Notes under the pieces: model-generated
Told to the model about the DNA's origin: nothing
The model's database searches: none
The model's input: only the letters and a program-made list of their open reading frames with translations
Sequence record: OR670491
DNA length: 64,000 bases
Source: Escherichia phage vB_EcoM_JNE01
Direction: 5' to 3' (one strand)
Position numbers and translations under genes: made by a program
In this document: positions 3,106-33,972 of the stretch, piece after piece
Layout of the letters: every line of letters begins with the position of its first letter
Position numbering within the stretch: position 1 is the stretch's first letter

Positions 3106-3571
3106 CATTTTAGGTAATATTGATACAGTAAACTATTTCGTACAAGATGCATTGGTTGGGATTACGTCTAAGCCATTGCAGGTTCGCAACAATTTCCATC
3201 AGGGTGATGGATACATTGTGGACATTACTGAACCGAAAAAGAATGTATTCAATGTTAACATTGCAACAACAGGTCGTAACAATATCGCACGAATTATCAT
3301 TGACAAGAATGAAATTGTTCTTCGTTACAATGCTAAGTTCATGATGTTCTTCAAGAGTAAGACTGACATGTTCAGTACTAATCTCTTTGATGAACCATTT
3401 AAATTAGAAGATATCGAAGCAGTATTCTTTACTCAGAGTACGTGCTTTAAGTTCAGAGATGTAGAATTCAGTCCAGATGTAATGACTGAAACTTTACAAA
3501 TGCTAAGGATTATCTATTATGGGTTTAATGAGTTTGCACAAGAACGAAACCAGGTTAACAACTGTAGATGA
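3098..3571 (+). CDS. hypothetical protein (157 aa)
   Basis: Long ORF, start overlaps previous stop. Confidence 0.5.
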   Translation: MLDILGNIDTVNYFVQDALVGITSKPLQVRNNFHQGDGYIVDITEPKKNVFNVNIATTGRNNIARIIIDKNEIVLRYNAKFMMFFKSKTDMFSTNLFDEPFKLEDIEAVFFTQSTCFKFRDVEFSPDVMTETLQMLRIIYYGFNEFAQERNQVNNCR

Positions 3572-11585: not shown

Positions 11586-11870
11586 ATGAAATCAGAAGAT
11601 ATAGAATTTACATATAGAGTTCTTTATAAAATGTATGCAAATCCAGTTGAAAATGATTTCACTTACTATGAAACACTTAGAACAATATGGATAATTTACT
11701 TACAAAATATTAAAGATTATTTCATAGGAAAACATATAACAATTAATAACATAAAATATAAATGTACTGATGTTACTAGTTATAGTGGGAAACTATCTAT
11801 TGAATTTTATCATCAAAATTCTTTTTATAGAAGATATCTTTCGGAGGTTAATTTGAATGATATTCAGTGA
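11586..11870 (+). CDS. hypothetical protein, tandem paralog family A (1/4)
   Basis: ~90 aa ORF; shares motifs (EFTYRVLY..., Y-x-G-[KR]-[IL]) with 11857, 12110, 13012. Confidence 0.5.
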   Translation: MKSEDIEFTYRVLYKMYANPVENDFTYYETLRTIWIIYLQNIKDYFIGKHITINNIKYKCTDVTSYSGKLSIEFYHQNSFYRRYLSEVNLNDIQ

Positions 11871-12129
11871 TTTACAATTCACGTATAAATGTATATTCGA
11901 TATTAAAGAGTCAGATAAATTACTTGACAATTTGTGGAGAATGTATCTAGAAGAAATACGTGAATATTTTTCGAAAGATGGTGGCTACACTATTCTTTAC
12001 AATAACGTAAAGATGGAGTACCAATACCTCCATAGTTACAATGGTAGAATTGAGGTTAGATTCTTTTCTAGTCAAATTGGTGGAAGGGACTTTATTTTGG
12101 AAGAATTAGATGAATACGAAACAGTATAA
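11857..12129 (+). CDS. hypothetical protein, tandem paralog family A (2/4)
   Basis: Overlapping start with previous gene; similar sequence pattern. Confidence 0.5.
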   Translation: MIFSDLQFTYKCIFDIKESDKLLDNLWRMYLEEIREYFSKDGGYTILYNNVKMEYQYLHSYNGRIEVRFFSSQIGGRDFILEELDEYETV

Positions 12130-12415
12130 AGACTGGCAATTCATATACAGATATTTGTACCGCCAGCACATCGATAGTATAGTTGAGAATGACGCATTTC
12201 GAATATTATGGCGTAGGGAGTTAGAAAAGCTTCGTTCACATTTCGTGGATTCTATATTCACACAAGATGGTCACATTTTCAAATGCGTTAGTGAGTACAA
12301 CATTCACTCATATGATGGTAACGTTGCTATAAGTTTTCATAAAATAACTGACGTTGATGATGGAAGAACATATACATACGAGATGACAAAATTACCGGAG
12401 AATCTTAAAACATGA
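12110..12415 (+). CDS. hypothetical protein, tandem paralog family A (3/4)
   Basis: Overlapping start; similar sequence pattern. Confidence 0.5.
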   Translation: MNTKQYKDWQFIYRYLYRQHIDSIVENDAFRILWRRELEKLRSHFVDSIFTQDGHIFKCVSEYNIHSYDGNVAISFHKITDVDDGRTYTYEMTKLPENLKT

Positions 12416-12612
12416 TACACTGTCCACATTGTAACAGTACTCAAATCGCTCGCTTCCGTCTTGATTCAGACTGGGCTAGTGGTGCTGGTGATTTCTTTCC
12501 CGTCAATGATGATGCGGAATATACTGAAGAACAACATAAAGATTTTGATAAATCATGGCGACCTGATATTGAATGCTTTTACTGCCTAGCGTGTGGTCGT
12601 ATCCATGACTAG
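12412..12612 (+). CDS. zinc-ribbon protein (66 aa)
   Basis: CPHC ... CLAC cysteine pairs. Confidence 0.45.
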   Translation: MIHCPHCNSTQIARFRLDSDWASGAGDFFPVNDDAEYTEEQHKDFDKSWRPDIECFYCLACGRIHD

Positions 12613-12838
12613 AGGTGAATTAGCCAGACGTACATTATCTATGCTTAAAGACTTCAACCACCAAAAAACAACTGAATATTACATTTCAACTTTACTTGAT
12701 TATTACTACCAGAGAAAAGTAATCCTGGGTCGTCATGAATTCACAGTGCTACACATGTACAGCAATGGTTTAGTATCTGTTAAAAATGAAACTTATGGTA
12801 CACAAATTTTAGCATTAAACATTCTTGGAGATATATAA
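12593..12838 (+). CDS. hypothetical protein (81 aa)
   Basis: ORF. Confidence 0.45.
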   Translation: MVVSMTRGELARRTLSMLKDFNHQKTTEYYISTLLDYYYQRKVILGRHEFTVLHMYSNGLVSVKNETYGTQILALNILGDI

Positions 12839-13015
12839 ATGAGTAATAAACTATTCTTTTTCCTATGGAGTCTGTTCTCTCTTACAGTACTGTCAATTGC
12901 AGGTGCTTATTTGTTTTTAAGCATGGATACATGGTATATCAATTTACTATGTCCATTTGTTGCAGTTGGATTTGGATTTACTTTACATAGTGTAATTAAA
13001 GACTTTAAAGAATGA
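12839..13015 (+). CDS. small membrane protein (58 aa, two hydrophobic segments)
   Basis: ATG right after upstream TAA; hydrophobic LFFFLWSLFSLTVLSIAGAYLFL; not in ORF track. Confidence 0.35.
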   Translation: MSNKLFFFLWSLFSLTVLSIAGAYLFLSMDTWYINLLCPFVAVGFGFTLHSVIKDFKE

Positions 13016-13302
13016 ATACAGAATCCAGTACTAAACTGCTACTAAAAGACATAGAATTCACTACAAAGGTTTTATATGAGTACTGGTCAGACAAAATTTT
13101 AGTTCAGTGTAATTCTGCTATGACAGATTTATATTTCAATACAGTTGATATTTTTAGAAATGAATTAATGCACAAACCTGTATTGTACAGGAATGAAGAG
13201 TACCAAATAGCTGCTGTTTCAACCAGTGCAGGAATGCTATTCTTGGATATTGAAAATTATAATTCATTTAGACCTGATGTACATTGGAAAACTTTAAGAT
13301 GA
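13012..13302 (+). CDS. hypothetical protein, paralog family A (4/4)
   Basis: DIEFTTKVLYEY motif as in 11586. Confidence 0.5.
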   Translation: MNTESSTKLLLKDIEFTTKVLYEYWSDKILVQCNSAMTDLYFNTVDIFRNELMHKPVLYRNEEYQIAAVSTSAGMLFLDIENYNSFRPDVHWKTLR

Positions 13303-13553
13303 ATCACAAACTAATTAATAATACAGCTACTATGCTTGCAGATAGTACGTATGAAATGGGGTTTGTCTCTAGGGCAATAGTAAAGCGTGAATTTCGAGAG
13401 AATATTCAGACATTGTATCAAGAAAAATATCCAAATGTTATTGACATATTGTTCACCTTTGATATACGTGTTTGCTTTACTAATTGCAGAAATCACCGTG
13501 AGCACTGCCCTTTGGATAAATTTGATATCTATTTCTCTACACCAGAGGTTTAA
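13299..13553 (+). CDS. hypothetical protein (~84 aa)
   Basis: ORF, ATGA overlap with upstream stop. Confidence 0.45.
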   Translation: MNHKLINNTATMLADSTYEMGFVSRAIVKREFRENIQTLYQEKYPNVIDILFTFDIRVCFTNCRNHREHCPLDKFDIYFSTPEV

Positions 13554-13832
13554 ATGACTCAACTTATTAACTGCAATCTTACCCAGCATACTATGAGTAT
13601 GCTTCATAAAAGCCTCCATGAAGAAAATATGAACATACAGAATGATTTGAGAATGAAGATAAAAAATGATCTCAATCGAATAATCAATATGTATTACAAG
13701 ACTAAACACAGTTCTATAATTAGTACATATTATGATTATGACCGCATTCGTGTTTCATACATCAACCGTAGCGGTAGTTTATGTGAGTCATACCTTGATA
13801 CTGTTATTGTTGAAAATATCCGTACAATTTAG
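13554..13832 (+). CDS. hypothetical protein (92 aa)
   Basis: ORF. Confidence 0.45.
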   Translation: MTQLINCNLTQHTMSMLHKSLHEENMNIQNDLRMKIKNDLNRIINMYYKTKHSSIISTYYDYDRIRVSYINRSGSLCESYLDTVIVENIRTI

Positions 13833-13893
13833 TCTGAACAAAATCTCAAGAAGTGATATAATAGTTGGTATGGAATAATAACTAACACAAGGA

Positions 13894-14631
13894 GTGTGTA
13901 AAGTGCTTGACCGTATCCGTTTTGCGACAGAGATCGCTAATCAAATGAATATTGCAAATTTTCAAATGCTCACATCTGTTATGGCTGAACATGCAACAGC
14001 GTATTCAGTAAGTGGTGTTCAGTGTGGACAAGAAAACCTTTTGGCTGATGTTTACAGTGAAGTCCAAAGTAAACAGTACAGCGTTAAAACATTCAGAGAT
14101 AAGTTTGTTAGTCTCTATATGAATGAAGATATTAAAGAAGACCGTAAATTCACGGACTTTATTATCGAACGAAGAGTGTCGGGAGTATCAAATCCTAATG
14201 CAGATAGTGATTCTGTATTTGCTGAAGTACTGAAAGATATATACGAAAATGAAGCTAAAAGTCTTAATCATTACAATGTACGTGAAACTAACACAGTGCT
14301 CTTGGGATATGATGAAGATGACCAGTACTACTATTTTCGTATGACCGAAGTACCATTTGAGTACCCTACACCACAAAGCACTTCAATTAAAGAGTTCACC
14401 GAGAAAAGTAAAAACTTCAAAATGCACGAAGGAAATCGTTGCAGTGTAGAAGGTTATGATGAAAACGGCACACATGTCTATAGCTGGGTCCACCCTAACT
14501 GTCAGACATATACTCGTTGCTTAAAGAAACGTTATAATCTTGAAGAACATGAATCTTTTTACTTTAAAGTTAAAAAACAAGAATACAATCGCCCTGCTGA
14601 CTCTGAGCTAATGGGAATGATTTACTTCTAA
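13894..14631 (+). CDS. hypothetical protein (~245 aa)
   Basis: ORF; GTG starts at 13894/13903 after AAGGAG; start uncertain. Confidence 0.5.
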   Translation: MCKVLDRIRFATEIANQMNIANFQMLTSVMAEHATAYSVSGVQCGQENLLADVYSEVQSKQYSVKTFRDKFVSLYMNEDIKEDRKFTDFIIERRVSGVSNPNADSDSVFAEVLKDIYENEAKSLNHYNVRETNTVLLGYDEDDQYYYFRMTEVPFEYPTPQSTSIKEFTEKSKNFKMHEGNRCSVEGYDENGTHVYSWVHPNCQTYTRCLKKRYNLEEHESFYFKVKKQEYNRPADSELMGMIYF

Positions 14632-14641
14632 GGACTATAGT

Positions 14642-14914
14642 ATGATAAATGATGAATTGAAGCGTGATTTATGGACGTATGATTATCTGGTTGATTTGGA
14701 TTGTGGTTGGAAATATAACTATGTAACACATGCTATACTATCTGATCACAGTATTAAGATATATAACACGTACCATAAGAAGCCAATTCATCACTATGGA
14801 ATGAATAAGTCTGGAATAATTGATGACATTGAATTTGACGTATTTGGTGTATACATACACGTTTCCTTCCTTGATGGTACACAGGGTTTATACACTATAG
14901 ATGAAATGAATTAA
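14642..14914 (+). CDS. hypothetical protein (90 aa)
   Basis: ORF; strong terminator downstream. Confidence 0.5.
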   Translation: MINDELKRDLWTYDYLVDLDCGWKYNYVTHAILSDHSIKIYNTYHKKPIHHYGMNKSGIIDDIEFDVFGVYIHVSFLDGTQGLYTIDEMN

Positions 14915-14915
14915 T

Positions 14916-14940
14916 GACCAGCACTGTGCTGGTCTTTTTT
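14916..14940 (+). terminator. rho-independent terminator
   Basis: GACCAGCA...TGCTGGTC stem then TTTTTT. Confidence 0.7.
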
Positions 14941-14953
14941 GTAGGAATACATA

Positions 14954-15643
14954 ATGATTAAAGATATAGATAAAGTACTGTTTGTACTAAAAGGTATAGT
15001 CACTTTGTATCGTGATATTACAAATATGCAATCCACCTTTGGATTAAAAGACATGGAAACTGAATATACACATTTGGAATACCTTAAATCGTCCCTATGT
15101 ACCGAGGATTCGGAGTACTCAATTCATCCAGTACTGGTAGAGCCATTTCAGGGTACTGGGTTCGGTATTTTCGATAAGAACATGGAACTAATTTCGATGT
15201 TCAGAGTTATGGACGGTCTTATCAACAGAACAGTACTATACAGTACGTGGGCTAACATAAATCCAAAATATCCAACGATTAAAGCCTTTGATGGTTCCCA
15301 AAAAGAAATAACCGTCGATGTTGATGAGAACATGACAGAGGAAGAACACTTCCAGACTTTAATGTTCAGGCAAATGCCAGAGTATAAACATATGATTGAT
15401 GCAATCAATTATACTAAAGAGATACTTCCTGCACTTGAAGTAAACAAATTCATGCACCCTGTTGATTACAATCACTTGAACTTAGATTTATCTAATACAC
15501 ACTTCTCTGAAAAGGTATTACAGTGTATTCAAAATGATACTAAGTTTGATTTCCTAAAAATACTAAAAGAAAATCCAAGAACAGATTTCTTTAAAGAATA
15601 TAATAATTCGTTCAGTACTGGCGATACTTCATGGTGGAAATAA
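14954..15643 (+). CDS. hypothetical protein (229 aa)
   Basis: Long ORF. Confidence 0.55.
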   Translation: MIKDIDKVLFVLKGIVTLYRDITNMQSTFGLKDMETEYTHLEYLKSSLCTEDSEYSIHPVLVEPFQGTGFGIFDKNMELISMFRVMDGLINRTVLYSTWANINPKYPTIKAFDGSQKEITVDVDENMTEEEHFQTLMFRQMPEYKHMIDAINYTKEILPALEVNKFMHPVDYNHLNLDLSNTHFSEKVLQCIQNDTKFDFLKILKENPRTDFFKEYNNSFSTGDTSWWK

Positions 15644-15906
15644 TGGACATACAATCTCAATTACAATTGTTAACAGTACTTGAAGATGCGGCGTTTCAGG
15701 TTGTATCAGATATAAACAAATTACTCCCACCTGGAACTAAAGTACGTGTTAGAGAGAAGAGTTATAATACTTTCGAAATAGTTGAACAGGAATTAACTGT
15801 AAAAAAAGTAACTTATTATGACTCAACATTATGTATTCAGTGCGAAGATAAAGACGAGATGTTATTGTATTATAATCAACACACAGATATAGAGGTAATA
15901 TCATGA
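15643..15906 (+). CDS. hypothetical protein, dispersed small paralog family B
   Basis: ~85 aa; shares [LV]xD...G[KT]KVR core with 19148, 19398, 22117, 23118; start 15631 or 15643. Confidence 0.45.
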   Translation: MDIQSQLQLLTVLEDAAFQVVSDINKLLPPGTKVRVREKSYNTFEIVEQELTVKKVTYYDSTLCIQCEDKDEMLLYYNQHTDIEVIS

Positions 15907-17045
15907 CACATTTACAAATATACGAAGACCTAATGCACTTGTGCAAAACAAATGAAGCATTTTTTTATGTTGATCATAAAAGTCCGGCTGGTGGTACATA
16001 CCGTGTATTCACCTATCGTCTGGCTTCTTACACAGATTTCAGTCTTCCTAATGCACTGGAAACACGTGGTTCTATGTGGGAGATTGATGAAGATGGTGAA
16101 ATGATTCGTTGTGCTTCGCGTGCAATGAAAAAGTTCTTCAATGCTTACGAGAACCCATTTACAATGTTCAGTCCAGATACAACATGCGATGATATTGCTA
16201 TCGTGATGCCTAAACTGGATGGTTCAATCATCAGTACATTTCGTGATAATGATGGTGAAATCCGTTGTAAATCACATACTTCCTTGTCATCTGACCACGC
16301 AATTAACAGTACTCGACTATTGAACGAGAACCGTAATTTGTATGATTATGTAGACGAAGCTGAACGTTTAGGTTATACTGTGAATCTGGAGTATACAAGT
16401 CCAGAGTACCGAATAGTATTACCATATCAAGTAGAACAGTTATTTGTACTTAATGTTCGTCATCGATTGAGTGGTGAGTTGTTATGCGGTGCTGCATTAC
16501 GTTCGAAGTTCCCTTGTTTAGCACAATACAGTACTAACATGACAGGTAATAACATCTGTTCATCGTTTCCGGTGCGTTCTACCTTCAAAGAAAGTGTAGA
16601 TGAAGTACGTAAAATGGTTGACATTGAAGGATTTGTGTGTATCCTAAATAATGGTACAATGTGCAAATTGAAAACTGATTGGTATTGTTCATTGCATCTT
16701 ACAAAAGACAGTATTCTTATACCGTCACATTTGTACGAAACTGTACTCAATGATGCCAGTGATGACCTGAAACAATTGTTCAGTACTGATGAATATGCAA
16801 TGCAGTTGATATTAAAAATGGAACAGCGTGTCTTTTCATGCTATAATGCTTTACAAGATGAAGTAGAGAGCTTCGTCCAACAATACAAGCACTTGGAGCG
16901 AAAGGAATTCGCAATGAAGGTTCAGGAATGTCTTAAGAATGAACTGAACCGTCAGGGCTTGGCCTTTGCGTTGTACAACGGTAAAGTGGTGAATTATAAA
17001 GAAACTTTATTGAAGTACTACAAAGATGTACTAAAGGATTTTTAG
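15903..17045 (+). CDS. rnlA: RNA ligase 1 (T4 Rnl1-like)
   Basis: N-terminal FFY...SPAGGTYRVFTYRLASYTDF...ALETRG and ligase motif I KLDGS align with T4 Rnl1 as recalled. Confidence 0.85.
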   Translation: MTHLQIYEDLMHLCKTNEAFFYVDHKSPAGGTYRVFTYRLASYTDFSLPNALETRGSMWEIDEDGEMIRCASRAMKKFFNAYENPFTMFSPDTTCDDIAIVMPKLDGSIISTFRDNDGEIRCKSHTSLSSDHAINSTRLLNENRNLYDYVDEAERLGYTVNLEYTSPEYRIVLPYQVEQLFVLNVRHRLSGELLCGAALRSKFPCLAQYSTNMTGNNICSSFPVRSTFKESVDEVRKMVDIEGFVCILNNGTMCKLKTDWYCSLHLTKDSILIPSHLYETVLNDASDDLKQLFSTDEYAMQLILKMEQRVFSCYNALQDEVESFVQQYKHLERKEFAMKVQECLKNELNRQGLAFALYNGKVVNYKETLLKYYKDVLKDF

Positions 17046-17074
17046 TACTAACTAGCCTAGCACAAGGAGAAGTG

Positions 17075-17329
17075 ATGGCTAAACCTAAGTATAAAAATGA
17101 CGGTTCCCTTTCTCCGACCGAGTTCAGGAAAATACAACAAGATATCGATGAATTACAGCACAAACGCTCAAAGAAAGGTGTGAAGATTAGTAAGAAAAGA
17201 ATCGAGAATACTTTTGGGTGTAGTAGTACTGAATACAAGAAGAAGAGGAAACCAAAAGACGTGAAACCGAGAATACATGATGTGTCTCGACATACGTCTA
17301 AACGTGAAAACAAATTCGATCCACTATAA
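17075..17329 (+). CDS. small lysine-rich basic protein
   Basis: ORF after AAGGAG; K/R-rich. Confidence 0.45.
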   Translation: MAKPKYKNDGSLSPTEFRKIQQDIDELQHKRSKKGVKISKKRIENTFGCSSTEYKKKRKPKDVKPRIHDVSRHTSKRENKFDPL

Positions 17330-17338
17330 GGAGTTCAT

Positions 17339-17569
17339 ATGAAAGTTGAAGTTCAGCATAGTATTGTACAAGATATGTCCGTTGTGAAATTTCTATCATT
17401 GAAAGATTATTTCAGATGCATCAAGTTCCTAGAAGAATCGAAACTACAGTGGACACCGTTGAAGTACAGTTCATCCAATGATACAGCCAGTATTCGTTGT
17501 GATGAATCTGTGCTTGTGAAAATCTCTAAGAGATTTGGGGTAGGTAAAGTTAATGAGCACAGTAAGTGA
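17339..17569 (+). CDS. hypothetical protein (76 aa)
   Basis: ORF after AAGGAG. Confidence 0.45.
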   Translation: MKVEVQHSIVQDMSVVKFLSLKDYFRCIKFLEESKLQWTPLKYSSSNDTASIRCDESVLVKISKRFGVGKVNEHSK

Positions 17570-17807
17570 TCTAAAATACTACAACAAAACTGCGGATACG
17601 TTTATTACTCATTTATATGAAGAATTTAGTCGTATCCGCACGGAATATACAGGTAAATGTATTTTTTATTGTTCTTATCATAGTGGCGAAATTGAACGTG
17701 CTTACATTACTAAAGTGAAGTTCAGTGATGACTATCAATTACTCTTTGAATTAGATAATTGTTTCGTTATTGAAGCTAGTTTGATAATGGATGTACTGGA
17801 TAATTGA
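17553..17807 (+). CDS. hypothetical protein (84 aa)
   Basis: ORF. Confidence 0.45.
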   Translation: MSTVSDLKYYNKTADTFITHLYEEFSRIRTEYTGKCIFYCSYHSGEIERAYITKVKFSDDYQLLFELDNCFVIEASLIMDVLDN

Positions 17808-17813
17808 GGACAT

Positions 17814-18128
17814 ATGAATAAAGAACTTGCACATGAAGGTATCGAAAAGTTAAAGTACATTGAAAGGGAACTAATAGAATCCGTCGAATCTTTGATAGAA
17901 GATTACGTTTTCGATTTTAAGAAAACATTGATTGGATGTAAAGTAAAATGCTGGGATCATACAATCAGAGAATGGTTCAGTACTATTATTCTTGATGTTA
18001 AAGTATCTCGTACTGCTATTGGTAACTTAGTAAATGGTGAATGCTTTGTATACACTGAATACAATAACGGAACACGTCACCTTTCAAGAGGATGGCACAG
18101 ACTCGAAGATGTAAAATTTATCGAGTAA
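17814..18128 (+). CDS. hypothetical protein (104 aa)
   Basis: ORF. Confidence 0.45.
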   Translation: MNKELAHEGIEKLKYIERELIESVESLIEDYVFDFKKTLIGCKVKCWDHTIREWFSTIILDVKVSRTAIGNLVNGECFVYTEYNNGTRHLSRGWHRLEDVKFIE

Positions 18129-18140
18129 TAAGGAGTAATA

Positions 18141-19085
18141 ATGCCGACTATTACATTAACAGTTGGTTTGCCAGGATGTGGTAAAACTACATGGGCTGTT
18201 GAAGCAATTCGAAAAGCAAAGTCAAAGACTGTCAATATCAACCGTGATGACATTCGTGAGTCAATGGCTGGTTCACATGATGCATACAAATTCAACGACG
18301 CTAATGAGCAGTACGTAACTACATTACAGTTCAGTGCAGCCGATTTAGCAGCTAAGAATTCGTGGAACATCATCGTTTCTGACACGAACCTTAAACAAGG
18401 TTTTCGTGATAAATGGAAAATGTGGGCTTCAGACAATGGGTACGACTACAAAGAAAAAGACTTCTATCAGGATTTTGAACCTAAAGAAGACCGTGGTGCT
18501 GATGTACATGAATTCTTTAAGATTAAAGAATATGTAAAACTTTGTAAGACTCGTAACCTAAAACGCGAACGTTCAGTACAGGACAGTATCATTGATACTA
18601 TGGCACATACGTACTATTACAGTAAAATGCGTATGTTCAATGCGTATGAGCTTCAGAATTATGACTCATTACCGCATTGTATTATTGTTGATATCGATGG
18701 TACACTAGCTCATAAAGGGGGTCGTAATCCATTCGATGAAAGTACTGTCCTACAGGATACTCCAGACGAGGAAGTAATTCTTTCAGTAATTGCAGAAGCA
18801 CAGTTCTTTAAACGCAAGATTATCGTTATGTCCGGCAGGACTGAAGGGTGCAGAGAAGATACTGAGAAGTGGTTACTGACTTGGGGTGTGCCTTATGATG
18901 AACTATATATGCGAGCAATTGATGATAAACGTCCTGATGATGTAGTTAAGTACGAGTTACTATCTAAACACGTTGCTGGGAAGTACACGGTCAAGAAGGT
19001 TTATGATGACCGTGAGGCAGTAACATTTATGTGGCGTAACCTAGTAGGATTGAAAGTATTCCAAGTCGAACCTGGATTATTTTGA
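18141..19085 (+). CDS. pseT: polynucleotide 5'-kinase/3'-phosphatase (T4 Pnk-like)
   Basis: Walker A GLPGCGKTT, NINRDD, HAD motif IVDIDGTLA; overall pattern like T4 PseT. Confidence 0.85.
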   Translation: MPTITLTVGLPGCGKTTWAVEAIRKAKSKTVNINRDDIRESMAGSHDAYKFNDANEQYVTTLQFSAADLAAKNSWNIIVSDTNLKQGFRDKWKMWASDNGYDYKEKDFYQDFEPKEDRGADVHEFFKIKEYVKLCKTRNLKRERSVQDSIIDTMAHTYYYSKMRMFNAYELQNYDSLPHCIIVDIDGTLAHKGGRNPFDESTVLQDTPDEEVILSVIAEAQFFKRKIIVMSGRTEGCREDTEKWLLTWGVPYDELYMRAIDDKRPDDVVKYELLSKHVAGKYTVKKVYDDREAVTFMWRNLVGLKVFQVEPGLF

Positions 19086-19147: not shown

Positions 19148-19405
19148 ATGGATATGTTACAAGTGCAATTAAAACAAAGTACTGACTTGATACTTTCTAT
19201 TATTGAAGATCTAAATCAACAGTACTTAGGAAAACGTGTCATAACTCATACAAAGATTAAAGGGTTTGTTTCGTTAATTTATTTTAATTCATATGAAAAT
19301 AAACTATGCGTTCGAATTAGAACCATAGATGAAGAAACTGGGTATGAGGATGGTGGATTAGCATCTATACCTTTTCAAAATTTAAGGTTATTAGAAGATG
19401 ATTAA
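19148..19405 (+). CDS. hypothetical protein, paralog family B
   Basis: ...EDLNQQYLGKRV...; related to 19398. Confidence 0.5.
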   Translation: MDMLQVQLKQSTDLILSIIEDLNQQYLGKRVITHTKIKGFVSLIYFNSYENKLCVRIRTIDEETGYEDGGLASIPFQNLRLLEDD

Positions 19406-19649
19406 AACAGAATTAGCATTAGTAAAACTGCATGTAGACTACGCAACAGTACTCGTAGAAGATCTATCAAAAAAGTACGTTGGTAAACGTGTGCGTTGCT
19501 ATTATAGTGAATATGATTATAAACATGATTTCCGTGTACAAGAGATTTTTCTGTTCGACGGGGTTATTAATATTCGTGTAATCAATGAACATAACCATAC
19601 CTATACATATGGCCTAAATGCAACTATAGAGGAATTGCCAGATGAATAG
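19398..19649 (+). CDS. hypothetical protein, paralog family B
   Basis: ...EDLSKKYVGKRVR... Confidence 0.5.
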   Translation: MIKTELALVKLHVDYATVLVEDLSKKYVGKRVRCYYSEYDYKHDFRVQEIFLFDGVINIRVINEHNHTYTYGLNATIEELPDE

Positions 19650-19938
19650 TGTTTTGTCAAAATTAAAAGAATTGAATTTCTATACTTACCTGTGGCTTGA
19701 TGAACAGGAACAGGTTGTAAGCAGATCTTATTCCCATATAATGATTGAGTTATCAAAGGATATACTAAAAACAGAAGTAAAAGTATTTTGTCCAGAAGCT
19801 AATATGGGTGGGAAGATTGTTGATTTTACTTTCGCTGGATTTATCAACTATAATTACGAACGTTCACTTGGTATTAAGGTTGAAATTGGGGAAGACGATT
19901 ATTGTACCTTTCAGTTGCCCGATTTGGTGATACAATGA
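19642..19938 (+). CDS. hypothetical protein (98 aa)
   Basis: ORF. Confidence 0.45.
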   Translation: MNSVLSKLKELNFYTYLWLDEQEQVVSRSYSHIMIELSKDILKTEVKVFCPEANMGGKIVDFTFAGFINYNYERSLGIKVEIGEDDYCTFQLPDLVIQ

Positions 19939-20234
19939 ATGAGGAAGATTTAAGAATATTAACCTACTATAGTAATCATTCGATAATTTTATATGAGATG
20001 GTTTATGAATACAAATACAGCGAGTATCCTTTATTTGATTTAGTACTGAATTTTTATAACGAAGTACGTGACAAATATTACGGTAAACCCATTGTAATAT
20101 TAGATGATACATTTTATATAGCAGCAGTGCATGGTTCATTAAATGGTATATTCTTTGATTTGAAATCGGATCTTAAATCAAAACATGTTGATGATAGTTT
20201 GTATATTTCGGAGATACCAAAATGTCAAATTTAA
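19935..20234 (+). CDS. hypothetical protein (~99 aa)
   Basis: ATGA overlap start chosen (track start 19902). Confidence 0.45.
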   Translation: MNEEDLRILTYYSNHSIILYEMVYEYKYSEYPLFDLVLNFYNEVRDKYYGKPIVILDDTFYIAAVHGSLNGIFFDLKSDLKSKHVDDSLYISEIPKCQI

Positions 20235-20548
20235 CAGAAGAAGATTTAAAGTATCTTCTGTACGTAGAAAAATCTACCATATTAATTTCGTCGGTTTGTG
20301 AAGAGTTTGACGATACCAGATGGAAAGGATGTGTGCCAACATACATCTTCGACACTATGGAAATATTGGAAAATAAGTTCTATAATAAATTAGTATATGA
20401 AAAGGAATATCCTAAAGTCAAACTTTATATTAAAGAATGCTTTTTCGCTGGACGCAGTGGTTTTATGTTTGATACAGGACGAAACGAAAAAGAAAAGTAC
20501 ACTTTTACTAGTGTTTATCTTGATGAGATTTTGTTAGCAAAAGATTGA
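20222..20548 (+). CDS. hypothetical protein (108 aa)
   Basis: ORF. Confidence 0.45.
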   Translation: MSNLTEEDLKYLLYVEKSTILISSVCEEFDDTRWKGCVPTYIFDTMEILENKFYNKLVYEKEYPKVKLYIKECFFAGRSGFMFDTGRNEKEKYTFTSVYLDEILLAKD

Positions 20549-20571
20549 CATTGAACTGGAATTGAACTATA

Positions 20572-20886
20572 ATGGACGAACTATTAAAAGAAATACTACA
20601 ATGGGAAAAGGATTTTGTTTTCATCAGTGAACAAAGAAACAATGCACCAAAGAGTGTTCGATCTGCCATTGAGTACTACATTGATGAAATGTGTGAATAC
20701 CTGACTAAAAAGTACTGTCCATTTAGTTCAGGATATTCCACCAACAGTTTTGTAACCAAACGAGATGTAGGTGAAATTCATATTGTAAAACGCATCACAC
20801 CTGGATTTGGTAACTGGTTTGTATTCAATACTGAACAATCTGAATACCTATACATCGAAGATTTAAGAAATATTATCAAAAAATAA
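20572..20886 (+). CDS. hypothetical protein (104 aa)
   Basis: ORF. Confidence 0.45.
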   Translation: MDELLKEILQWEKDFVFISEQRNNAPKSVRSAIEYYIDEMCEYLTKKYCPFSSGYSTNSFVTKRDVGEIHIVKRITPGFGNWFVFNTEQSEYLYIEDLRNIIKK

Positions 20887-20897
20887 GGAGAGTACAT

Positions 20898-21518
20898 ATG
20901 TTAACAACACTAGCAATTATTTGGGTTCTTGGTGTAATCATCACTGCTATGCTTGCATACAATCACAATCGCAATATCATTGGGTATTCTGTACTCGGTG
21001 TAGTACTGTCACCTGTGATTTCAATCGGTGTTCTCCTAATGCTAGGTGAACGCAACCCCAATCTATTCATCAATGACAACCGTGATAAGGTTACACCAGT
21101 ACCAGAAACTGTTATTCCTGAAGAACTAGCACCTGCACCGGAAGTTGTTGAAGTAATAGAAGAAGTCGTGGAACCTGTCAAACCAGTACCGCCAGTATTC
21201 CCTGAAGTGCAGGTTGTTCCTGAAGTTAAAAAGCATAAGTCCAATAAGTCCTCAAAGAAAGCACGATATACTAAAGGCAAGAACAAAGGTAAGAAACCAG
21301 ATACCCAAAGCACTTCCACTTCCACCACAACCACCACCAATACCCCTGATAACGCAGCAGGCATCGCTACAGCAGCCGTAATGACTGCCCTGTACGTTGG
21401 TGACGATTACAGTGATTACACCACTACAACGACGTATAGCTCGTCCTCTGACACTTCTTCATATGACAGTTCCAGTTCATGTGATAGCAGCAGTTCTTCT
21501 TCTGGTAGTTGTGATTAA
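20898..21518 (+). CDS. membrane protein with Pro/Val/Glu-rich linker and Ser/Thr-rich tail
   Basis: Two N-terminal hydrophobic segments; low-complexity PEVVEVIEEVVEPVKPVPP and T/S runs. Confidence 0.5.
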   Translation: MLTTLAIIWVLGVIITAMLAYNHNRNIIGYSVLGVVLSPVISIGVLLMLGERNPNLFINDNRDKVTPVPETVIPEELAPAPEVVEVIEEVVEPVKPVPPVFPEVQVVPEVKKHKSNKSSKKARYTKGKNKGKKPDTQSTSTSTTTTTNTPDNAAGIATAAVMTALYVGDDYSDYTTTTTYSSSSDTSSYDSSSSCDSSSSSSGSCD

Positions 21519-21519
21519 T

Positions 21520-21885
21520 ATGAAAGACCTGAAATACGTTTCAATGTATTACGAGGTACTCACTAATCAAATCCTAGAATACATCGATTCGGTCAGAAAG
21601 GATCTTACGGGTAAAACCGTAAGATTCACCGACGAATACATTGAACAACAGAACAGGGTTGAATCTTATACCTTCATTGATGACGATGGTACAATTTTTG
21701 AAGATGCAGAGGATATCACACATATCAGTACTGATATTAAGATGGAAGTCATTACTATTGTTAGTAAGAACACAACCAGACTATACGCAGTAGTTGAATG
21801 TCTATCATGTCCAGATGACACTGTGTATGATTTTGACCAATACATAGATCTTAAAAATTTAGTACTTATGGGAGTGGAGGAATAA
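21520..21885 (+). CDS. hypothetical protein (~121 aa)
   Basis: ATG just after upstream TAA; track start 21397 is an overlap-frame extension. Confidence 0.5.
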   Translation: MKDLKYVSMYYEVLTNQILEYIDSVRKDLTGKTVRFTDEYIEQQNRVESYTFIDDDGTIFEDAEDITHISTDIKMEVITIVSKNTTRLYAVVECLSCPDDTVYDFDQYIDLKNLVLMGVEE

Positions 21886-21887
21886 TT

Positions 21888-22124
21888 ATGATGACATTTT
21901 TTGGAATTTATGGTTTCGTTGCTATATGTTCATTTGTATGCAACTTTATAGTACTAAATTGGGGTTGTTTCAAAGATGAACTAATCACCATAATTAGTCT
22001 ACAATCCGCAGCACTTATGGCTATTATATGGCCTGTAACATTGGTATATCTTCTTATCTCATTGGTGCGAGATGTAAAAGATAAGTACGTTAAGAACTCT
22101 AAAAAAGGTGAGAAACATGACTAA
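21888..22124 (+). CDS. small membrane protein (78 aa, 2 TM)
   Basis: Hydrophobic segments; GGAGTGGAGG upstream. Confidence 0.5.
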   Translation: MMTFFGIYGFVAICSFVCNFIVLNWGCFKDELITIISLQSAALMAIIWPVTLVYLLISLVRDVKDKYVKNSKKGEKHD

Positions 22125-22374
22125 TGTAGATAAATCTCATATTCGTTATTTGTTTTCTTTAGTTGATGATTTCTTACAAGATATCAAGCCCAAGTACATT
22201 GGGAAAGAAGTCCGTTTGACACATACCAGAGGTTACTATAAACATATCATTGAAGATGTTATTCTTCGTAAGGGTGAGTTGTGCTTTAAAGTTTGCAATT
22301 ACCTTGAAGATGGTACGTATGCTGGTTCTCAAATGGTACATGATGATAAGATTATTTGGATGAATATTGAATGA
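22117..22374 (+). CDS. hypothetical protein, paralog family B
   Basis: ...DDFLQDIKPKYIGKEVR...; ATG 22117 after AAGGTGAG. Confidence 0.5.
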   Translation: MTNVDKSHIRYLFSLVDDFLQDIKPKYIGKEVRLTHTRGYYKHIIEDVILRKGELCFKVCNYLEDGTYAGSQMVHDDKIIWMNIE

Positions 22375-23114
22375 AACATTTTTTAGAAGTAACTGTTCCA
22401 GATGATAAAGAACTATATATTGTAGGCGACATTCATGGTAATGCTAAACTATGGGATATAACTAAAACAGAATTTGGCATTACTTCTGATGATTATGTTT
22501 TTAGCTTAGGTGATCTAATAGACCGAGGAACTCAAAGTGCTAAGTTACTTTTTGAGTTCCTTTTTTCTGATAACCGTTTTATGATTCTCGGCAATCATGA
22601 ACAGCTATGTGTTGATTCAGAAAAGTACAGAGACTGGCATCACTGTTGGTTATCGAATGGTGGAGATAAGTTCATCGAGGAAATCGGTGATACTGGTATT
22701 CAGTTCTTTAGACAGTACTTAAATCAGTTGCCTACAATCATCCAAATCAATCACAGAGGTCTGAAGATTGGACTCGTTCATGCTGGTGTTGATCTGAAGT
22801 ATCAAAACTGGGATCAGTTTATTTCTGGAACAAAGTCGCTTAGTACTGATATAATTGAGTCATTGCTATGGGAACGTAAGACATTTGATTTCTGCAAAGG
22901 AAACAATGTATACAATGCACCACGCATTCAGGGTGTTGACTACGTTCTTAGTGGTCATACTGGTGTGGTTGACCCATTGATTTATGGCAATCGCGTATGG
23001 ATAGACAGTCAATTCATGAGTGGTGATTTAACCGTTGCCACCCCACAAAGTGGCAAGATGCGTTACTTGCGTCGAGAAAAGGACGATTATTCTTTTAATC
23101 GTTTTAAAAGGTAA
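22371..23114 (+). CDS. Ser/Thr protein phosphatase (PPP family, lambda-PPase/ApaH-like)
   Basis: Motifs GDIHG, GDLIDRG, GNHE. Confidence 0.75.
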   Translation: MKHFLEVTVPDDKELYIVGDIHGNAKLWDITKTEFGITSDDYVFSLGDLIDRGTQSAKLLFEFLFSDNRFMILGNHEQLCVDSEKYRDWHHCWLSNGGDKFIEEIGDTGIQFFRQYLNQLPTIIQINHRGLKIGLVHAGVDLKYQNWDQFISGTKSLSTDIIESLLWERKTFDFCKGNNVYNAPRIQGVDYVLSGHTGVVDPLIYGNRVWIDSQFMSGDLTVATPQSGKMRYLRREKDDYSFNRFKR

Positions 23115-23117
23115 ATT

Positions 23118-23381
23118 ATGCACGAAGAGATACAACAAATCATCAAAACTCGCATCAATTTTGAAAGTACAGTTTCGTCGATGGTCCATGATTATCGAAA
23201 CGATGTTCAAGCGTATCTATCTGACAAAGTTGTTGGGAAACGTGTGTGGTTTGAAGACATGTACCCAGAAGGTATTATCACGCGTATTGTAACAATGGGT
23301 ACAAACACTATATACGTAGAAATACAGTACAGTGGAAATAGATTATATCAAACGGATATTAAGTACGTTACGTTTTTATAA
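23118..23381 (+). CDS. hypothetical protein, paralog family B
   Basis: ...YLSDKVVGKRVW... Confidence 0.5.
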   Translation: MHEEIQQIIKTRINFESTVSSMVHDYRNDVQAYLSDKVVGKRVWFEDMYPEGIITRIVTMGTNTIYVEIQYSGNRLYQTDIKYVTFL

Positions 23382-25265: not shown

Positions 25266-26684
25266 ATGAGCATTCTATCTATTATCGAAAACATTAAAAG
25301 TGTTAGCAGTACCCTTGGCAAGAAAGCTATCCTGGAAGAGAACAAAGATAATGAAACTCTCAAGAAAGTACTGAAATATACACTAGACCCTAGTATTGTA
25401 AGTGGCTATAAGAAGCTACCAGAAGCCCATGACGCATCTCAACATATGTCATTGGATGAAGCTATAGATAAGCTGGAATGCATCTATAAGCGTGATGTGA
25501 CGGGCCATGCAGGGCGTGATTTCATTGCTTCAGTACTGGGTAGTGTAAGTCCAGATGATGCTGAAGTTATTCGTAAGATGCTTACCAAGAACCTAGATTG
25601 TGGTATTCAAGAGAAGAACTGTAACGATGTATTCGGTAAAGGTTTCATCAAAGATGAACCATATATGCGTTGTTCTTTGCTTGATAAAAAGACTGTTAAG
25701 AACATCAACTTCAAAGGTCATGGTTATGCTGTCTCCGAGGTCAAAATGGATGGCACTTACCTGAACCACGTAGTTATCAATGGTTCTCTTACTTCTTCCT
25801 CCCGTAATGGTAAACTATATGACTTCTTAGGTTGTCGTGATGGTGAGATGGCAGGTCTTGCACATCAAATCCAAATGAATGATGATCGTTTTAGTAGTGG
25901 CGTAGTCTTTATGGGCGAAGGTCTAGTACTTGATAATGACGGTGAAACTATTCTCCCACGCACAACTGGTAATGGTATCATCCAGAAAGCTGGGAAAGAC
26001 AGTATCAACCAAAATGAAGCAATGCGTACTGTATTTGTCCTGTGGGATGTTGTTCCTTATGATGCATTCTGCGACGGTACATGGAACGTAAAACGTAAAG
26101 AACGTCGTGAACTGCTTGAAAATGCAATCAATGCATTGGGTAGTGAATTTGTCCGTATGGTGAAATACCGTAAGGTTAAAAACATCAAAGAAGCATTTGA
26201 GTACAATAACGAACTCATGGAACAGGGTGAAGAAGGTTCAGTACTGAAATGTGAAGATGGTGTCTGGAAATCACATACGTCTCCTAAGCAGTTGAAAGTA
26301 AAACTAAAAATGCAATTGGATTTGCGTATTGTTGGCTTCAACGAAGGTGAAGGTAAACGTAAAGGTTCACTTGGTTCTTTACAACTCGAAAGTGCATGTG
26401 GTACACTAAAAGTAAATGTAGGAACAGGTATCAAAGAGAAAGATGCAGAGTGGACATTCAAAACCATTTGGGAACGAATGCAAGAACTAATTGGTAAAGT
26501 CGTTACCGTTGAGTGTAATGAAATAGTTATTGACAGTAAAACTGGTGAACCATCACTATTTTTACCAGTGTTTATTGAATTTAGATTTGACAAAAACACG
26601 TGTGACGATTATACTCGTATCTTAGAAATTCGTGATAGTGCTGTTGAGGTGTTCTCTAACAGTATCATTGAATCAATAGCTTAA
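25266..26684 (+). CDS. ATP-dependent DNA ligase (T4 gp30-like)
   Basis: N-terminus ...KKAILEENKDNETLKKV... resembles T4 ligase; motif I KMDGTY. Confidence 0.8.
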   Translation: MSILSIIENIKSVSSTLGKKAILEENKDNETLKKVLKYTLDPSIVSGYKKLPEAHDASQHMSLDEAIDKLECIYKRDVTGHAGRDFIASVLGSVSPDDAEVIRKMLTKNLDCGIQEKNCNDVFGKGFIKDEPYMRCSLLDKKTVKNINFKGHGYAVSEVKMDGTYLNHVVINGSLTSSSRNGKLYDFLGCRDGEMAGLAHQIQMNDDRFSSGVVFMGEGLVLDNDGETILPRTTGNGIIQKAGKDSINQNEAMRTVFVLWDVVPYDAFCDGTWNVKRKERRELLENAINALGSEFVRMVKYRKVKNIKEAFEYNNELMEQGEEGSVLKCEDGVWKSHTSPKQLKVKLKMQLDLRIVGFNEGEGKRKGSLGSLQLESACGTLKVNVGTGIKEKDAEWTFKTIWERMQELIGKVVTVECNEIVIDSKTGEPSLFLPVFIEFRFDKNTCDDYTRILEIRDSAVEVFSNSIIESIA

Positions 26685-26702: not shown

Positions 26703-27494
26703 ATGAAATTTGTTGTAACATCTGACGTACACGGTGGAACTAATTACCTCCATAGCGGTGATTACAGTGACGTAGTACTGATCATTGCTGGTGACTTTGA
26801 CGAAGTAAAGCGTAGTCGTTATCGTACCGGAATCGAAGAACTGTGTAAGCAGTTCTATAAGGTAGTACTGGTTCCTGGGAATCACGAATACTACGGTTCC
26901 AATATCCAAAAGACGCATCAAGTACTGTCCACTATGCAGGATGAGATTCCTAATTTCATCTTCCTACAAAACAAGTTCCAGTTCATTGGTGATGTACTGC
27001 TCGTTGGTAGTACTCTGTGGACTGACTTTGATAAAGGTAATTCACTGGTTAAGTTTGATGCTAAGATGAAGATGAATGATTACAAACACATTCGTCATGG
27101 CACTACGTCTGAACCTTGGCGTAAGAAGCTGACCCCTGAAGATACTGAGTTCATGCACCATCAGGATAAACAATTCATCAAGAATGCGATTTGTAGTGCT
27201 CGTTTGATGAGTGGTGATGATATTAAAGTACTGGTAGTTACTCACCACGCACCGAGTTACCAAAGTGTATCTCCACGATATAAGAATGATTCACTGAATG
27301 GCTGTTACTGTTCTGATATGGATCAGTTCATCGAAGATGTAGGAGCAGATGTATGGGTACATGGTCACGTACATAGCAGCTTTGACTACAATATCGGAAA
27401 GACACGTATTATTTGTAACCCAAAAGGTTATGAGTCATTTAGTGGTGCATCTGAGAACTTCGACTACAATCCACAATTTGTATTTGAAATCTAG
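26703..27494 (+). CDS. calcineurin-like metallophosphoesterase
   Basis: Motifs SDVHGG, GDFDE, GNHEY, THHAP, GHVHS. Confidence 0.7.
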   Translation: MKFVVTSDVHGGTNYLHSGDYSDVVLIIAGDFDEVKRSRYRTGIEELCKQFYKVVLVPGNHEYYGSNIQKTHQVLSTMQDEIPNFIFLQNKFQFIGDVLLVGSTLWTDFDKGNSLVKFDAKMKMNDYKHIRHGTTSEPWRKKLTPEDTEFMHHQDKQFIKNAICSARLMSGDDIKVLVVTHHAPSYQSVSPRYKNDSLNGCYCSDMDQFIEDVGADVWVHGHVHSSFDYNIGKTRIICNPKGYESFSGASENFDYNPQFVFEI

Positions 27495-28364: not shown

Positions 28365-29060
28365 ATGGTTGAACAATTTATGTTTGGTGGTTATGCAAAT
28401 GGTGAAGTACGTAACATTTCTATTCCTTATGTTGTAGAAAAAGTTAACGGTTCAGAACGCACATATGACTTGGCATCTCGTATGATGCAAGACCGTATCC
28501 TATTCTTGGATACCGATTTCAACGACCAGATGGCACACATTATCAAACAACAATTGGTATGGCTTGATTCACAAGGTGATTCTCCAATCACTATGTATAT
28601 CTCGTCCCCAGGCGGTTCAGTTCACGCTGGTTTGGGTATTGCTGATGTTGCAAAATCCTGTATCTCTCCAATTCGTACTGTTGTTATGGGTTATGCTGCT
28701 TCTATGGGTTGCTATACTCAATCAGTACTGGGTACTAAGGGTTATCGTCTAGGTGGTAAGCGTTCATTCTTCATGTGTCACCAAGTAAGTTCTGGTACAC
28801 AGGGTTTGATTACTGACCAGAAGATTTCTTTGAGGCATTCTGACTCTCTGAACACGCTTCTAACGAAAGAAATCGCTGAAGCAGTAGGTGTGTCTCATGA
28901 ACAACTTCTGAAAGACGCAGACCGTGATTTGTGGCTAAATGCAGAAGAAGCACTTGAGTACGGCGAACATGGTTTCATTGATGGTATCATCCTTGGGCCA
29001 CGTGATGAAGCTGGTAAGTACCTTGTTAAGCGTCGTGGCGGCGTGGAAGAGTGGGTGTAA
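28365..29060 (+). CDS. clpP: ATP-dependent Clp protease proteolytic subunit (ClpP-like)
   Basis: SPGGSV, catalytic-Ser motif GYAASMG, His motif MCHQVSSG, Asp region RDLWLNAEEALEYG. Confidence 0.8.
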   Translation: MVEQFMFGGYANGEVRNISIPYVVEKVNGSERTYDLASRMMQDRILFLDTDFNDQMAHIIKQQLVWLDSQGDSPITMYISSPGGSVHAGLGIADVAKSCISPIRTVVMGYAASMGCYTQSVLGTKGYRLGGKRSFFMCHQVSSGTQGLITDQKISLRHSDSLNTLLTKEIAEAVGVSHEQLLKDADRDLWLNAEEALEYGEHGFIDGIILGPRDEAGKYLVKRRGGVEEWV

Positions 29061-33063: not shown

Positions 33064-33972
33064 TTAAGCTGCACTTACAACATAAGTACATTCAGCAGTA
33101 TGTGAACCATCAACTGTAGTTACGATAACACTAGCATTACCTTCACCAACTAATGTCACTAAACCTGCATTTGATACAGTAAGAACTTCATCGTTAGTAC
33201 TTGACCATACAACATCTTTGTTAGCTGCATTTACTGGGAGTACAGTTGCAATTAGTGTTTCGGTTCCACCAATTGGGCCATTACTTGATGTTTTACTTAA
33301 AGTAACACCAGTAACTGGGGTATTGACAACATATGCACAAGATGCTACTTTAGAACCATCAACTGTTGTTGCGTTGACTGTTGCTGAACCGTTACCAACT
33401 AGAGTTACTAATCCAGAATTAGACACGGTGAGTACTGCGTCATTAGTACTTGACCATACAACTGATTTATTTGTTGCATTTTCAGGTAATACAGTTGCAA
33501 CTAGTGTTTCAGAACCACCAATCTGACCATTACTAGAATTTTTATTCAATGAAATACTTTCGACTGGAACAACAACTGCGACATACTTAGTCGCGTACTT
33601 ACCAGTTTGTACTTCATTGCCATTAGTAAGAATTACTTTATGGGTGAAAAATTTATATGCAAAACCGAGTGCTTCCATAGTTGTTGCATCATAAACTTTA
33701 ACAGCGAATTCATCACGACCAAGTGCACTTGCAATTTCTTGGGCAGTGGCTGATAAATCAAGTAGGTTACGATTTTTATCTCGACCAACCATTGATACTC
33801 TTTGATAAACAGTAGTTGAATCACTATCAACTAAGTCAAACATGCGAGTACTACACTCGTTGATAATGTATAGTTCTTTATCAATTTCTTGAGCACTGTG
33901 ATCAGTTGCTGCAAAAACACAGATACCACCAACGTTGAATGGCAATTCACCAAATTTAGCTATAGGCTTCAT
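33064..33972 (-). CDS. Ig-like (Big_2 repeat) domain protein, Hoc/decoration- or tail-like
   Basis: Only reverse-strand gene; two ~85-aa repeats ...GGSETL.ATVLP.NA.NK.VVWSSTND.VLTVSN.GLVTLVG.G.A.V..TTVDGS...; AGGAG RBS. Confidence 0.6.
   Translation of the reverse strand: MKPIAKFGELPFNVGGICVFAATDHSAQEIDKELYIINECSTRMFDLVDSDSTTVYQRVSMVGRDKNRNLLDLSATAQEIASALGRDEFAVKVYDATTMEALGFAYKFFTHKVILTNGNEVQTGKYATKYVAVVVPVESISLNKNSSNGQIGGSETLVATVLPENATNKSVVWSSTNDAVLTVSNSGLVTLVGNGSATVNATTVDGSKVASCAYVVNTPVTGVTLSKTSSNGPIGGTETLIATVLPVNAANKDVVWSSTNDEVLTVSNAGLVTLVGEGNASVIVTTVDGSHTAECTYVVSAA
33100..33620 (-). repeat. tandem duplication (~255 bp period) encoding two Ig-like domains
   Basis: Repeated peptide blocks in both the - frame and the + shadow frame. 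Confidence 0.5.

Follow-up and report, generated by a model that had tools for sequence, protein, structure and literature searches.

Escherichia phage vB_EcoM_JNE01 (sequence record OR670491) carries genes for an RNA ligase 1 (Rnl1) and a polynucleotide 5'-kinase/3'-phosphatase (Pnk), and the four small open reading frames (ORFs) lying between them, here designated B, C, D and E, can with good confidence be divided into two classes: a conserved core, B and C, and two lineage-specific inserts, D and E. The locus lies in a stretch of 64,000 nucleotides (nt), referred to throughout as the window, which sequence comparison assigns to an Asteriusvirus-like jumbo coliphage; the 4-kb region around the locus is 95.7% identical at the nucleotide level to Escherichia phage Turkey5 and ~84% identical to 121Q and other Asteriusvirus jumbo coliphages (~350 kb). 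On balance, we lean toward reading the locus as a tRNA-repair module of the T4 "heal and seal" type, carried by an Asteriusvirus jumbo coliphage, with B and C at its core and D and E inserted. The repair pair is itself ordinary, has been annotated in relatives since 2013 and adds nothing new. What is new here is a narrower list of candidates, in which B and especially C stand out and D and E are set aside. Should B and C prove to be partners of Pnk and Rnl1, phage tRNA repair, classically the work of two enzymes, would acquire accessory components; should they not, C would remain an orphan jumbo-phage protein under strong constraint, for which a phenotype is worth seeking.

The locus comprises the following genes, with the enzyme names given as predicted from homology and protein lengths in amino acids (aa):

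15903..17045, + strand: Rnl1, T4 RnlA-family RNA ligase 1, 380 aa, with a nucleotidyltransferase domain and a C-terminal tRNA-specificity domain
17075..17329, + strand: ORF B, 84 aa, isoelectric point (pI) 10.2, 25 lysines plus arginines, orphan family phrog_15306
17339..17569, + strand: ORF C, 76 aa, small alpha/beta protein, orphan family phrog_14730
17553..17807, + strand: ORF D, 84 aa, acidic, lineage-specific insert at the C/Pnk junction
17814..18128, + strand: ORF E, 104 aa, phrog_31355, lineage-specific polymorphic insert
18141..19085, + strand: Pnk, T4 PseT-type polynucleotide 5'-kinase/3'-phosphatase, 314 aa

A first-pass annotation, made from the DNA letters, had described an RNA repair pair separated by five small ORFs. 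Both enzymes are present, but the intervening ORFs number four, as its own reasoning text also lists; the separation of about 1.1 kb that it gave agrees with the 1095 nt measured from the Rnl1 stop to the Pnk start. This gap is tiled by the four + strand ORFs with almost no spacing, and the same four intervening genes are annotated in the nearest deposited relatives, Turkey5 and 121Q. The window has a GC content of ~35%, with nearly all genes on the + strand. B and C are tightly packed on the same strand, and a strong AAGGAG ribosome-binding site precedes each of B, C and Pnk, the sites of D and E being weaker. Within the cassette no promoter or terminator rose above shuffled expectation, and the nearest plausible + strand terminators lie at 14916-14934 and 20445-20460. 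No meaningful repeats were found in the locus.

Selection on the four ORFs is uneven. Nei-Gojobori estimates of the ratio of nonsynonymous to synonymous substitution rates (dN/dS), window versus 121Q, gave 0.007 for C (synonymous rate, dS, 0.76) and 0.07 for B, against 0.10 for Rnl1, 0.15 for Pnk, 0.20 for E and 0.37 for D. Short ORFs in DNA of 35% GC that carry no database annotation might be taken for annotation noise, chance frames in an AT-rich sequence. Purifying selection on all four, the tiling of the gap with almost no spacing, the ribosome-binding sites at B, C and E, the assignment of three ORFs to PHROG families (E-values below 1e-39) and the tens of homologues of B and C leave that explanation a negligible probability; judged by their sequences, all four look like genuine coding genes.

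C was more conserved than either enzyme in every relative compared (n = 5). Its identity to the window protein, followed by those of Rnl1 and Pnk, was 98.7%, 85% and 76-77% in 121Q; 70%, 57% and 58% in GAP32; 69%, 58% and 57% in fHe-Yen9-04; 66%, 63% and 64% in RaK2; and 59-61%, 49% and 44% in XaC1. A conservation landscape was also drawn for the 42 small ORFs (<=120 aa) of window positions 1-45000 against the collinear 50-kb regions of GAP32, RaK2 and XaC1. Conservation in all three holds for only five of the 42, among which C ranks highest in identity; the small ORFs listed from the flanks (11586-15906 and 19148-22374) have no homologue in those regions.

The distribution of B and C follows one clade of phages. 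Searches by tblastn of 50,697 phage records found B in 53, from Asteriusvirus, Mimasvirus, Eneladusvirus and related phages, and C in 70. All positive records are RaK2-like jumbo phages, with hosts in Escherichia, Salmonella, Klebsiella, Cronobacter, Yersinia, Erwinia, Serratia, Pectobacterium and Xanthomonas; among the T4-like phages with Rnl1, which number more than 1,400, neither gene was detected. Local BLASTP of the loci revealed shorter B homologues in RaK2 (E-value 1e-6) and XaC1 (E-value 6e-14). Rnl1 and Pnk flank B and C in all nine isolates examined (Turkey5, 121Q, PBECO4, A4, SD-6_S16, RaK2, GAP32, fHe-Yen9-04 and XaC1), which span Asteriusvirus, Alcyoneusvirus, Mimasvirus, Eneladusvirus and the unclassified phage XaC1; the metagenomic contigs L009-L011 and L016 share this arrangement. 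The intervals read as follows, X being a further small gene:

Window, Turkey5 and 121Q: B, C, D, E
A4: B, C, a divergent D and a divergent E
PBECO4: B, C and a divergent E
Salmonella phage SD-6_S16 (same genus): B and C only, C overlapping the Pnk start
RaK2 and contig L009: a short B, C and three other small ORFs
GAP32, fHe-Yen9-04, XaC1 and contig L011: B, X, C, with C overlapping Pnk

In four relatives with no insert at the junction, the C stop overlaps the Pnk start. The 74-aa gene X (GAP32_082 family; positions 3264-3488 of locus L006) stands between B and C in Mimasvirus, Eneladusvirus, XaC1 and several metagenomic contigs and is absent from the window, Asteriusvirus and Alcyoneusvirus. 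The idea that X is a diverged paralogue of C was rejected at an hhalign probability of 0.1%. Contig L016 has the order Rnl1-B-X-C-Pnk with a diverged C (E-value 1.6e-10), and the ancestral cassette probably had that order too. B is the sole small gene present in every Rnl1-Pnk interval examined, those of L015-L017 included. B and C would thus be the core of a cassette, Rnl1-B-(X)-C-Pnk, inherited as a unit by the RaK2-like clade.

D and E behave as dispensable inserts would in a hot spot between C and Pnk. By tblastn, D occurs in only 12 phage records, all of the 121Q subgroup, with an allele 35% identical in phage A4, and is absent from PBECO4-type phages and SD-6_S16. E occurs in 31 phage records, all Asteriusvirus, as alleles ~92% and 32-38% identical. 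SD-6_S16, of the same genus, lacks both genes, and by this distribution D and E are judged naturally dispensable. Depending on lineage, the C/Pnk junction holds 0 to 3 unrelated small ORFs. Across the D-E block (17553-18128), dS versus 121Q is 0.14-0.22 (D 0.14), as opposed to ~1.0-1.1 for the flanking enzymes, and recent exchange of the block is therefore indicated. The cassette is, to judge from such comparisons, a recombination mosaic. Versus Turkey5, Rnl1 has a dS of 0.32, far above that of B and C (0.02) or Pnk (0.08).

The same data could be read as the mark of swapped counter-defence or host-range genes, with D, E and the other ORFs of the C/Pnk junction occupying an accessory hot spot. 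Consistent with this are the lineage-dependent content of the junction, the 32-38% identity between E alleles, the elevated dN/dS of D and E, and their dS roughly five-fold below that of the flanks, which suggests recent horizontal exchange. Like turnover is, however, seen for nearly every small ORF of the early region, so that the repair locus is no special case; PADLOC places neither D nor E in a known defence-related family, and both seem to be members of diffuse paralogue families across the region. We regard a counter-defence role as rather improbable, and take D and E to be, most plausibly, variable early genes of the ordinary kind.

The paralogy of D and E is itself tentative. An iterative hidden Markov model (HMM) search, in which one decoy match reached the inclusion threshold, linked E to window ORFs at 15631-15906, 19148-19405, 19398-19649, 22117-22374, 23118-23381 and 11586-11870 and to RaK2 ORF463/467, while hhalign with thin profiles gave only moderate support (P ~1e-4). 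For D, no PHROG or Pfam match was found, and a weak paralogue lies at 21463-21885 (E-value 1e-4). From these profile matches, E, and less clearly D, may belong to diffuse families of small early proteins dispersed across the window. Three of the putative E relatives lie beside the cassette. The 91-aa ORF at 15631-15906 (+), of the same tentative family as E, has a stop that overlaps the Rnl1 start (ATGA); its counterparts (121Q gp437, PBECO4 gp130 and RaK2 ORF463) are also directly upstream of Rnl1, and it diverges fast, with 57% identity to the 121Q protein. Just downstream of Pnk, the adjacent overlapping ORFs 19148-19405 and 19398-19649 (+) resemble tandem paralogues; a direct repeat of 35 nt, 77% identical and encoding EDL..(Q/K)(Q/K)Y(L/V)GKRV, is common to both, and they group with E in the HMM search.

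The enzymes that bound the interval can be identified with very high confidence from homology. Rnl1 (15903-17045), correctly named in the first-pass annotation, matches Pfam RNA_lig_T4_1 (E-value 4e-16), Pfam T4_Rnl1_C over residues 268-362 (E-value 9.4e-15) and the NCBIfam equivalog TIGR02308 (298.5 bits, cut-off 242); it aligns over its full length with T4 RnlA at 36% identity (E-value 3e-66) and matches the T4 Rnl1 structure, Protein Data Bank (PDB) entry 2c5u, with an E-value of 1e-59. The motif I lysine (KxDG) is kept (PKLDGS versus TKEDGS in T4 RnlA), and further aligned pairs are ETRG/ECRG, KKFFN/EKFFN, DIEGFV/NIEGYV and CKLKTDWY/FKIKSDWY. Equivalents of T4 Rnl1 R54, K75, F77, E227, G228, K240 and K242 align in the window protein; the list of essential T4 residues reportedly derives from mutagenesis work in the Shuman laboratory. 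In T4, tRNA specificity is conferred by the C-terminal domain of Rnl1.

Pnk (18141-19085), likewise correctly named, matches Pfam AAA_33 (E-value 9e-13) and HAD_PNKP (E-value 1.4e-42, whole profile covered), T4 PseT over its full length at 33% identity (E-value 8e-42) and PDB 1ltq (E-value 6e-35). Its P-loop GLPGCGKT aligns with T4 GCPGSGKS (GxxGxGK[ST]), NINRDDIR with T4 NINRDDYR, which contains the catalytic D35 and R38 of T4, and the HAD phosphatase motif DIDGTLA with T4 DVDGTLA (DxDGT). Relative to T4, the kinase domain carries an insert of ~15-30 aa. The T4 precedent invoked for the pair, in which tRNA cleaved by PrrC is healed by Pnk and sealed by Rnl1, is correct. By analogy, at a break made by a host anticodon nuclease, the window Pnk would strip the 2',3'-cyclic or 3'-phosphate from one end and phosphorylate the 5'-OH of the other, and Rnl1, with its tRNA-specific C-terminal domain kept, would reseal the anticodon loop. 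From homology and intact catalytic motifs, we infer this heal-and-seal function with high confidence.

No tRNA gene, and no Rfam family at its gathering threshold, was found across the whole 64-kb window; several tRNA genes are reported for published genomes of the phage group, among them that of RaK2 (PMC3622015). A third RNA-repair-associated gene lies ~38 kb downstream of the Rnl1-Pnk cassette, at 56655-57896 (+), and encodes a 413-aa RlaP-domain protein (Pfam E-value 9e-16, "RNA repair pathway DNA polymerase beta family"). The RlaP family is associated with RNA ligases in jumbo phages according to parts of PMC7824862, where the Rnl1, PNK-HAD and RlaP systems of jumbo phages are surveyed.

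Orthologues of both enzymes occupy the same locus in RaK2 (gp464 RNA ligase and gp470 Pnk) and 121Q (gp438 and gp443), with B and C between them; the window ligase is 63-85% and the kinase 64-77% identical to these proteins. RaK2 gp464 and gp470 are called RNA repair proteins in passages of the 2013 genome paper (PMC3622015), and in Turkey5 the two enzyme genes are annotated "RNA ligase" and "RNA repair". The searched passages of PMC3622015 and PMC7824862 make no mention of the small intervening ORFs, and no literature on these ORFs, or on PDB entry 9DO4, was found.

As proteins, B and C are orphans: no homologue of either could be detected beyond the clade, and the folds predicted for them give no clue to function. 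B is the lysine-rich basic protein that the first-pass annotation had picked out, with a pI of 10.2 and 25 lysines and arginines (30% of residues). It matches phrog_15306 (E-value 9e-40), and a profile search returned 66 homologues of 57-97 aa, none with a Pfam domain; a Pfam scan of every family member gave chance-level matches only. An AlphaFold2 model of B consists of a long helix (residues 14-45) and a short helix (51-57), with a predicted local distance difference test score (pLDDT) of 79 and a predicted template modelling score (pTM) of 0.44. A helix-turn-helix around NTFGVSSTxYKK, suspected by eye, was unsupported by the model, and the segment is deleted in RaK2-type B.

A word-indexed search for remote homologues of C, together with a full scan of 1.84 billion representatives by HMM, recovered clade members only; the remaining matches were long repetitive proteins and were judged spurious. 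The invariant residues H7, S8, Q11, D12, K17, Y43, S44, S45, S51, R53 and E56 of C fall on strands and hairpins, a placing that is compatible with a binding surface and shows nothing more. PDB sequence profiles gave nothing below an E-value of 0.5 for B or C, and NCBIfam gave no match for the small ORFs. PADLOC, a defence-protein library that holds no anti-defence proteins, had no match for B, C or E and only a chance-level Cas2b match for D (E-value 0.027). In the annotated records examined, the counterparts of B and C are labelled "hypothetical protein"; one record, that of fEgEco12, labels a gene under the C/E matches "transcriptional regulator".

The arrangement of the locus has a direct parallel in T4, where rnlA, alc, pseT.3, pseT.2, pseT.1 and pseT follow in the same order and orientation, ligase upstream and kinase downstream, with four intervening genes in 1.43 kb as against 1.10 kb here. 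The separation of Rnl1 and Pnk is thus unremarkable in itself. The T4 intervening genes encode a host-transcription inhibitor (alc), a spanin pair (PseT.3/PseT.2) and one protein of unknown role, none of them known in RNA repair; those of the window differ in being two clade-conserved orphans and two variable inserts. BLASTP of B-E against the T4 intervening proteins (alc, pseT.1-3 and cd.3-5) gave nothing below an E-value of 0.2, comparison of B and C with each T4 intervening protein by hhalign profile alignment gave probabilities of <=0.5%, and no transmembrane segment or lipobox, as expected of spanins, was seen when the B-E sequences were read by eye.

Weighing this evidence, we tentatively propose, as a possibility that stops somewhat short of probable, that B and C share a conserved target with the repair enzymes and act alongside them. 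On this view B, basic and helical, would bind RNA or protein, and C, a small alpha/beta protein, would be a partner made together with Pnk. The extreme constraint on B and C in phages of many different hosts is much easier to reconcile with an invariant partner than with a host nuclease that varies. The earlier suggestion that the small ORFs include accessory factors survives in part: B and C are conserved among relatives, but D and E are restricted and absent from SD-6_S16. A more specific version, which we consider doubtful, makes C, perhaps with B, a new non-catalytic subunit of the Rnl1-Pnk tRNA-repair pathway in RaK2-like jumbo phages. C could then be an alpha/beta adaptor, translationally coupled to Pnk, that holds the broken anticodon loop or passes healed ends from Pnk to Rnl1; if so, contact of C with a target that does not vary, such as tRNA, would account for the dN/dS of 0.007. 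Passages of PMC4411300 supply a precedent for repair enzymes recruiting a co-encoded third protein, namely Pnkp1-Rnl-Hen1. In the bacterial Pnkp-Hen1 and Pnkp1-Rnl-Hen1 systems an additional protein that joins the repair complex is encoded together with the enzymes that heal and seal, and the window Pnk matches Pnkp1 (PDB 4xrp) with an E-value of 3e-32. Hen1, however, is a large 2'-O-methyltransferase, whereas B and C are proteins of 76-84 aa that lack a methyltransferase or any other recognisable domain.

Several observations weigh against a role of B and C in repair. T4 Rnl1 and Pnk function in vitro without partners. The distant contigs L015 and L017, which correspond to logan:SRR5240359_806 and SRR22973663_12731, have the order Rnl1-B-X-Pnk, keeping both enzymes and X with no C in the interval, so that C is not indispensable to phages with both enzymes. 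Presence and absence vary too little within the clade to offer much of a test of co-occurrence. No homology, domain or fold match assigns a biochemical function to B or C, and the low pTM of the B model belongs to an extended helix unsuited to fold search. The T4 layout is the same with intervening genes unrelated to repair, so that position alone is weak evidence of function. Finally, the neighbourhood is collinear among GAP32, RaK2 and XaC1 regardless of gene function: the genes for Dam, cytidyltransferase, a 242-aa protein, DNA ligase, ClpP, dCMP deaminase and PhoH all stay in order across relatives. Since the whole region is collinear, the position of B and C may reflect descent only.

Much of this would be expected if all four small ORFs were functionally unrelated early genes kept together by inherited order, with B and C conserved for a different core role early in infection, for instance take-over of the host or binding of nucleic acid apart from tRNA repair. 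The transcription and spanin genes of the T4 interval, the collinearity of a 50-kb neighbourhood across genera, the contigs with both enzymes and no C in the interval, and the lack of any functional annotation for B and C all favour such an explanation, which we treat as a serious contender without holding it to be the probable one. Two features sit less easily with it, although neither is decisive: B and C belong to a very small set of small ORFs that have been kept, and they stay immediately between the enzymes amid rapid turnover of their neighbours, and the overlap of the C stop with the Pnk start suggests coupled expression.

The first-pass annotation had further raised the possibility that the small ORFs include inhibitors of host RNA-targeting defences, and the analysis produced no evidence of any kind for this. 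Small phage proteins often act as inhibitors, and proximity to the repair enzymes is the only feature of the locus that would suggest direct inhibition of a host anticodon nuclease or other RNA-targeting defence by one or more of the ORFs. B and C evolve slowly, contrary to what is usual for inhibitors, and hardly vary among phages infecting Escherichia, Klebsiella, Cronobacter, Yersinia, Erwinia, Serratia, Pectobacterium and Xanthomonas, a pattern atypical of an arms race; D and E are dispensable in nature, and no similarity to any characterised protein was found. Direct inhibition is accordingly very improbable. The preferred reading remains that of a repair module in which B and C form the inherited core.

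Several other genes of the window deserve mention. A 479-aa protein encoded at 36889-38328 (+) fuses a PIN domain to a PhoH-like ATPase (PIN_4 E-value 2e-20, PhoH E-value 2e-44) and has counterparts of 45-77% identity in GAP32, RaK2 and XaC1; it is possibly an RNA-processing enzyme in the same early region. The context genes at 22371-23114, 25266-26684, 26703-27494, 28365-29060, 34918-35670 and 45465-47267 (+), whose products comprise two calcineurin-like phosphoesterases, an ATP-dependent DNA ligase, a ClpP-like protease, a SIR2-family protein and the anaerobic ribonucleotide reductase NrdD, are collinear in order with GAP32 and RaK2. The 206-aa protein encoded at 20898-21518 (+) shows, by eye, N-terminal hydrophobic membrane-like segments, repeats rich in Pro, Glu and Val, and a tail of extreme Ser/Thr/Asp low complexity that ends in SSSSSSGSCD; it has no homologue in the GAP32, RaK2 and XaC1 regions. 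Among the scanned ORFs of at least 130 aa, the only family match on the minus strand is a 302-aa protein with Big_2 Ig-like domains (33064-33972, -), the counterparts of which in GAP32, RaK2 and XaC1 are annotated "major tail protein".

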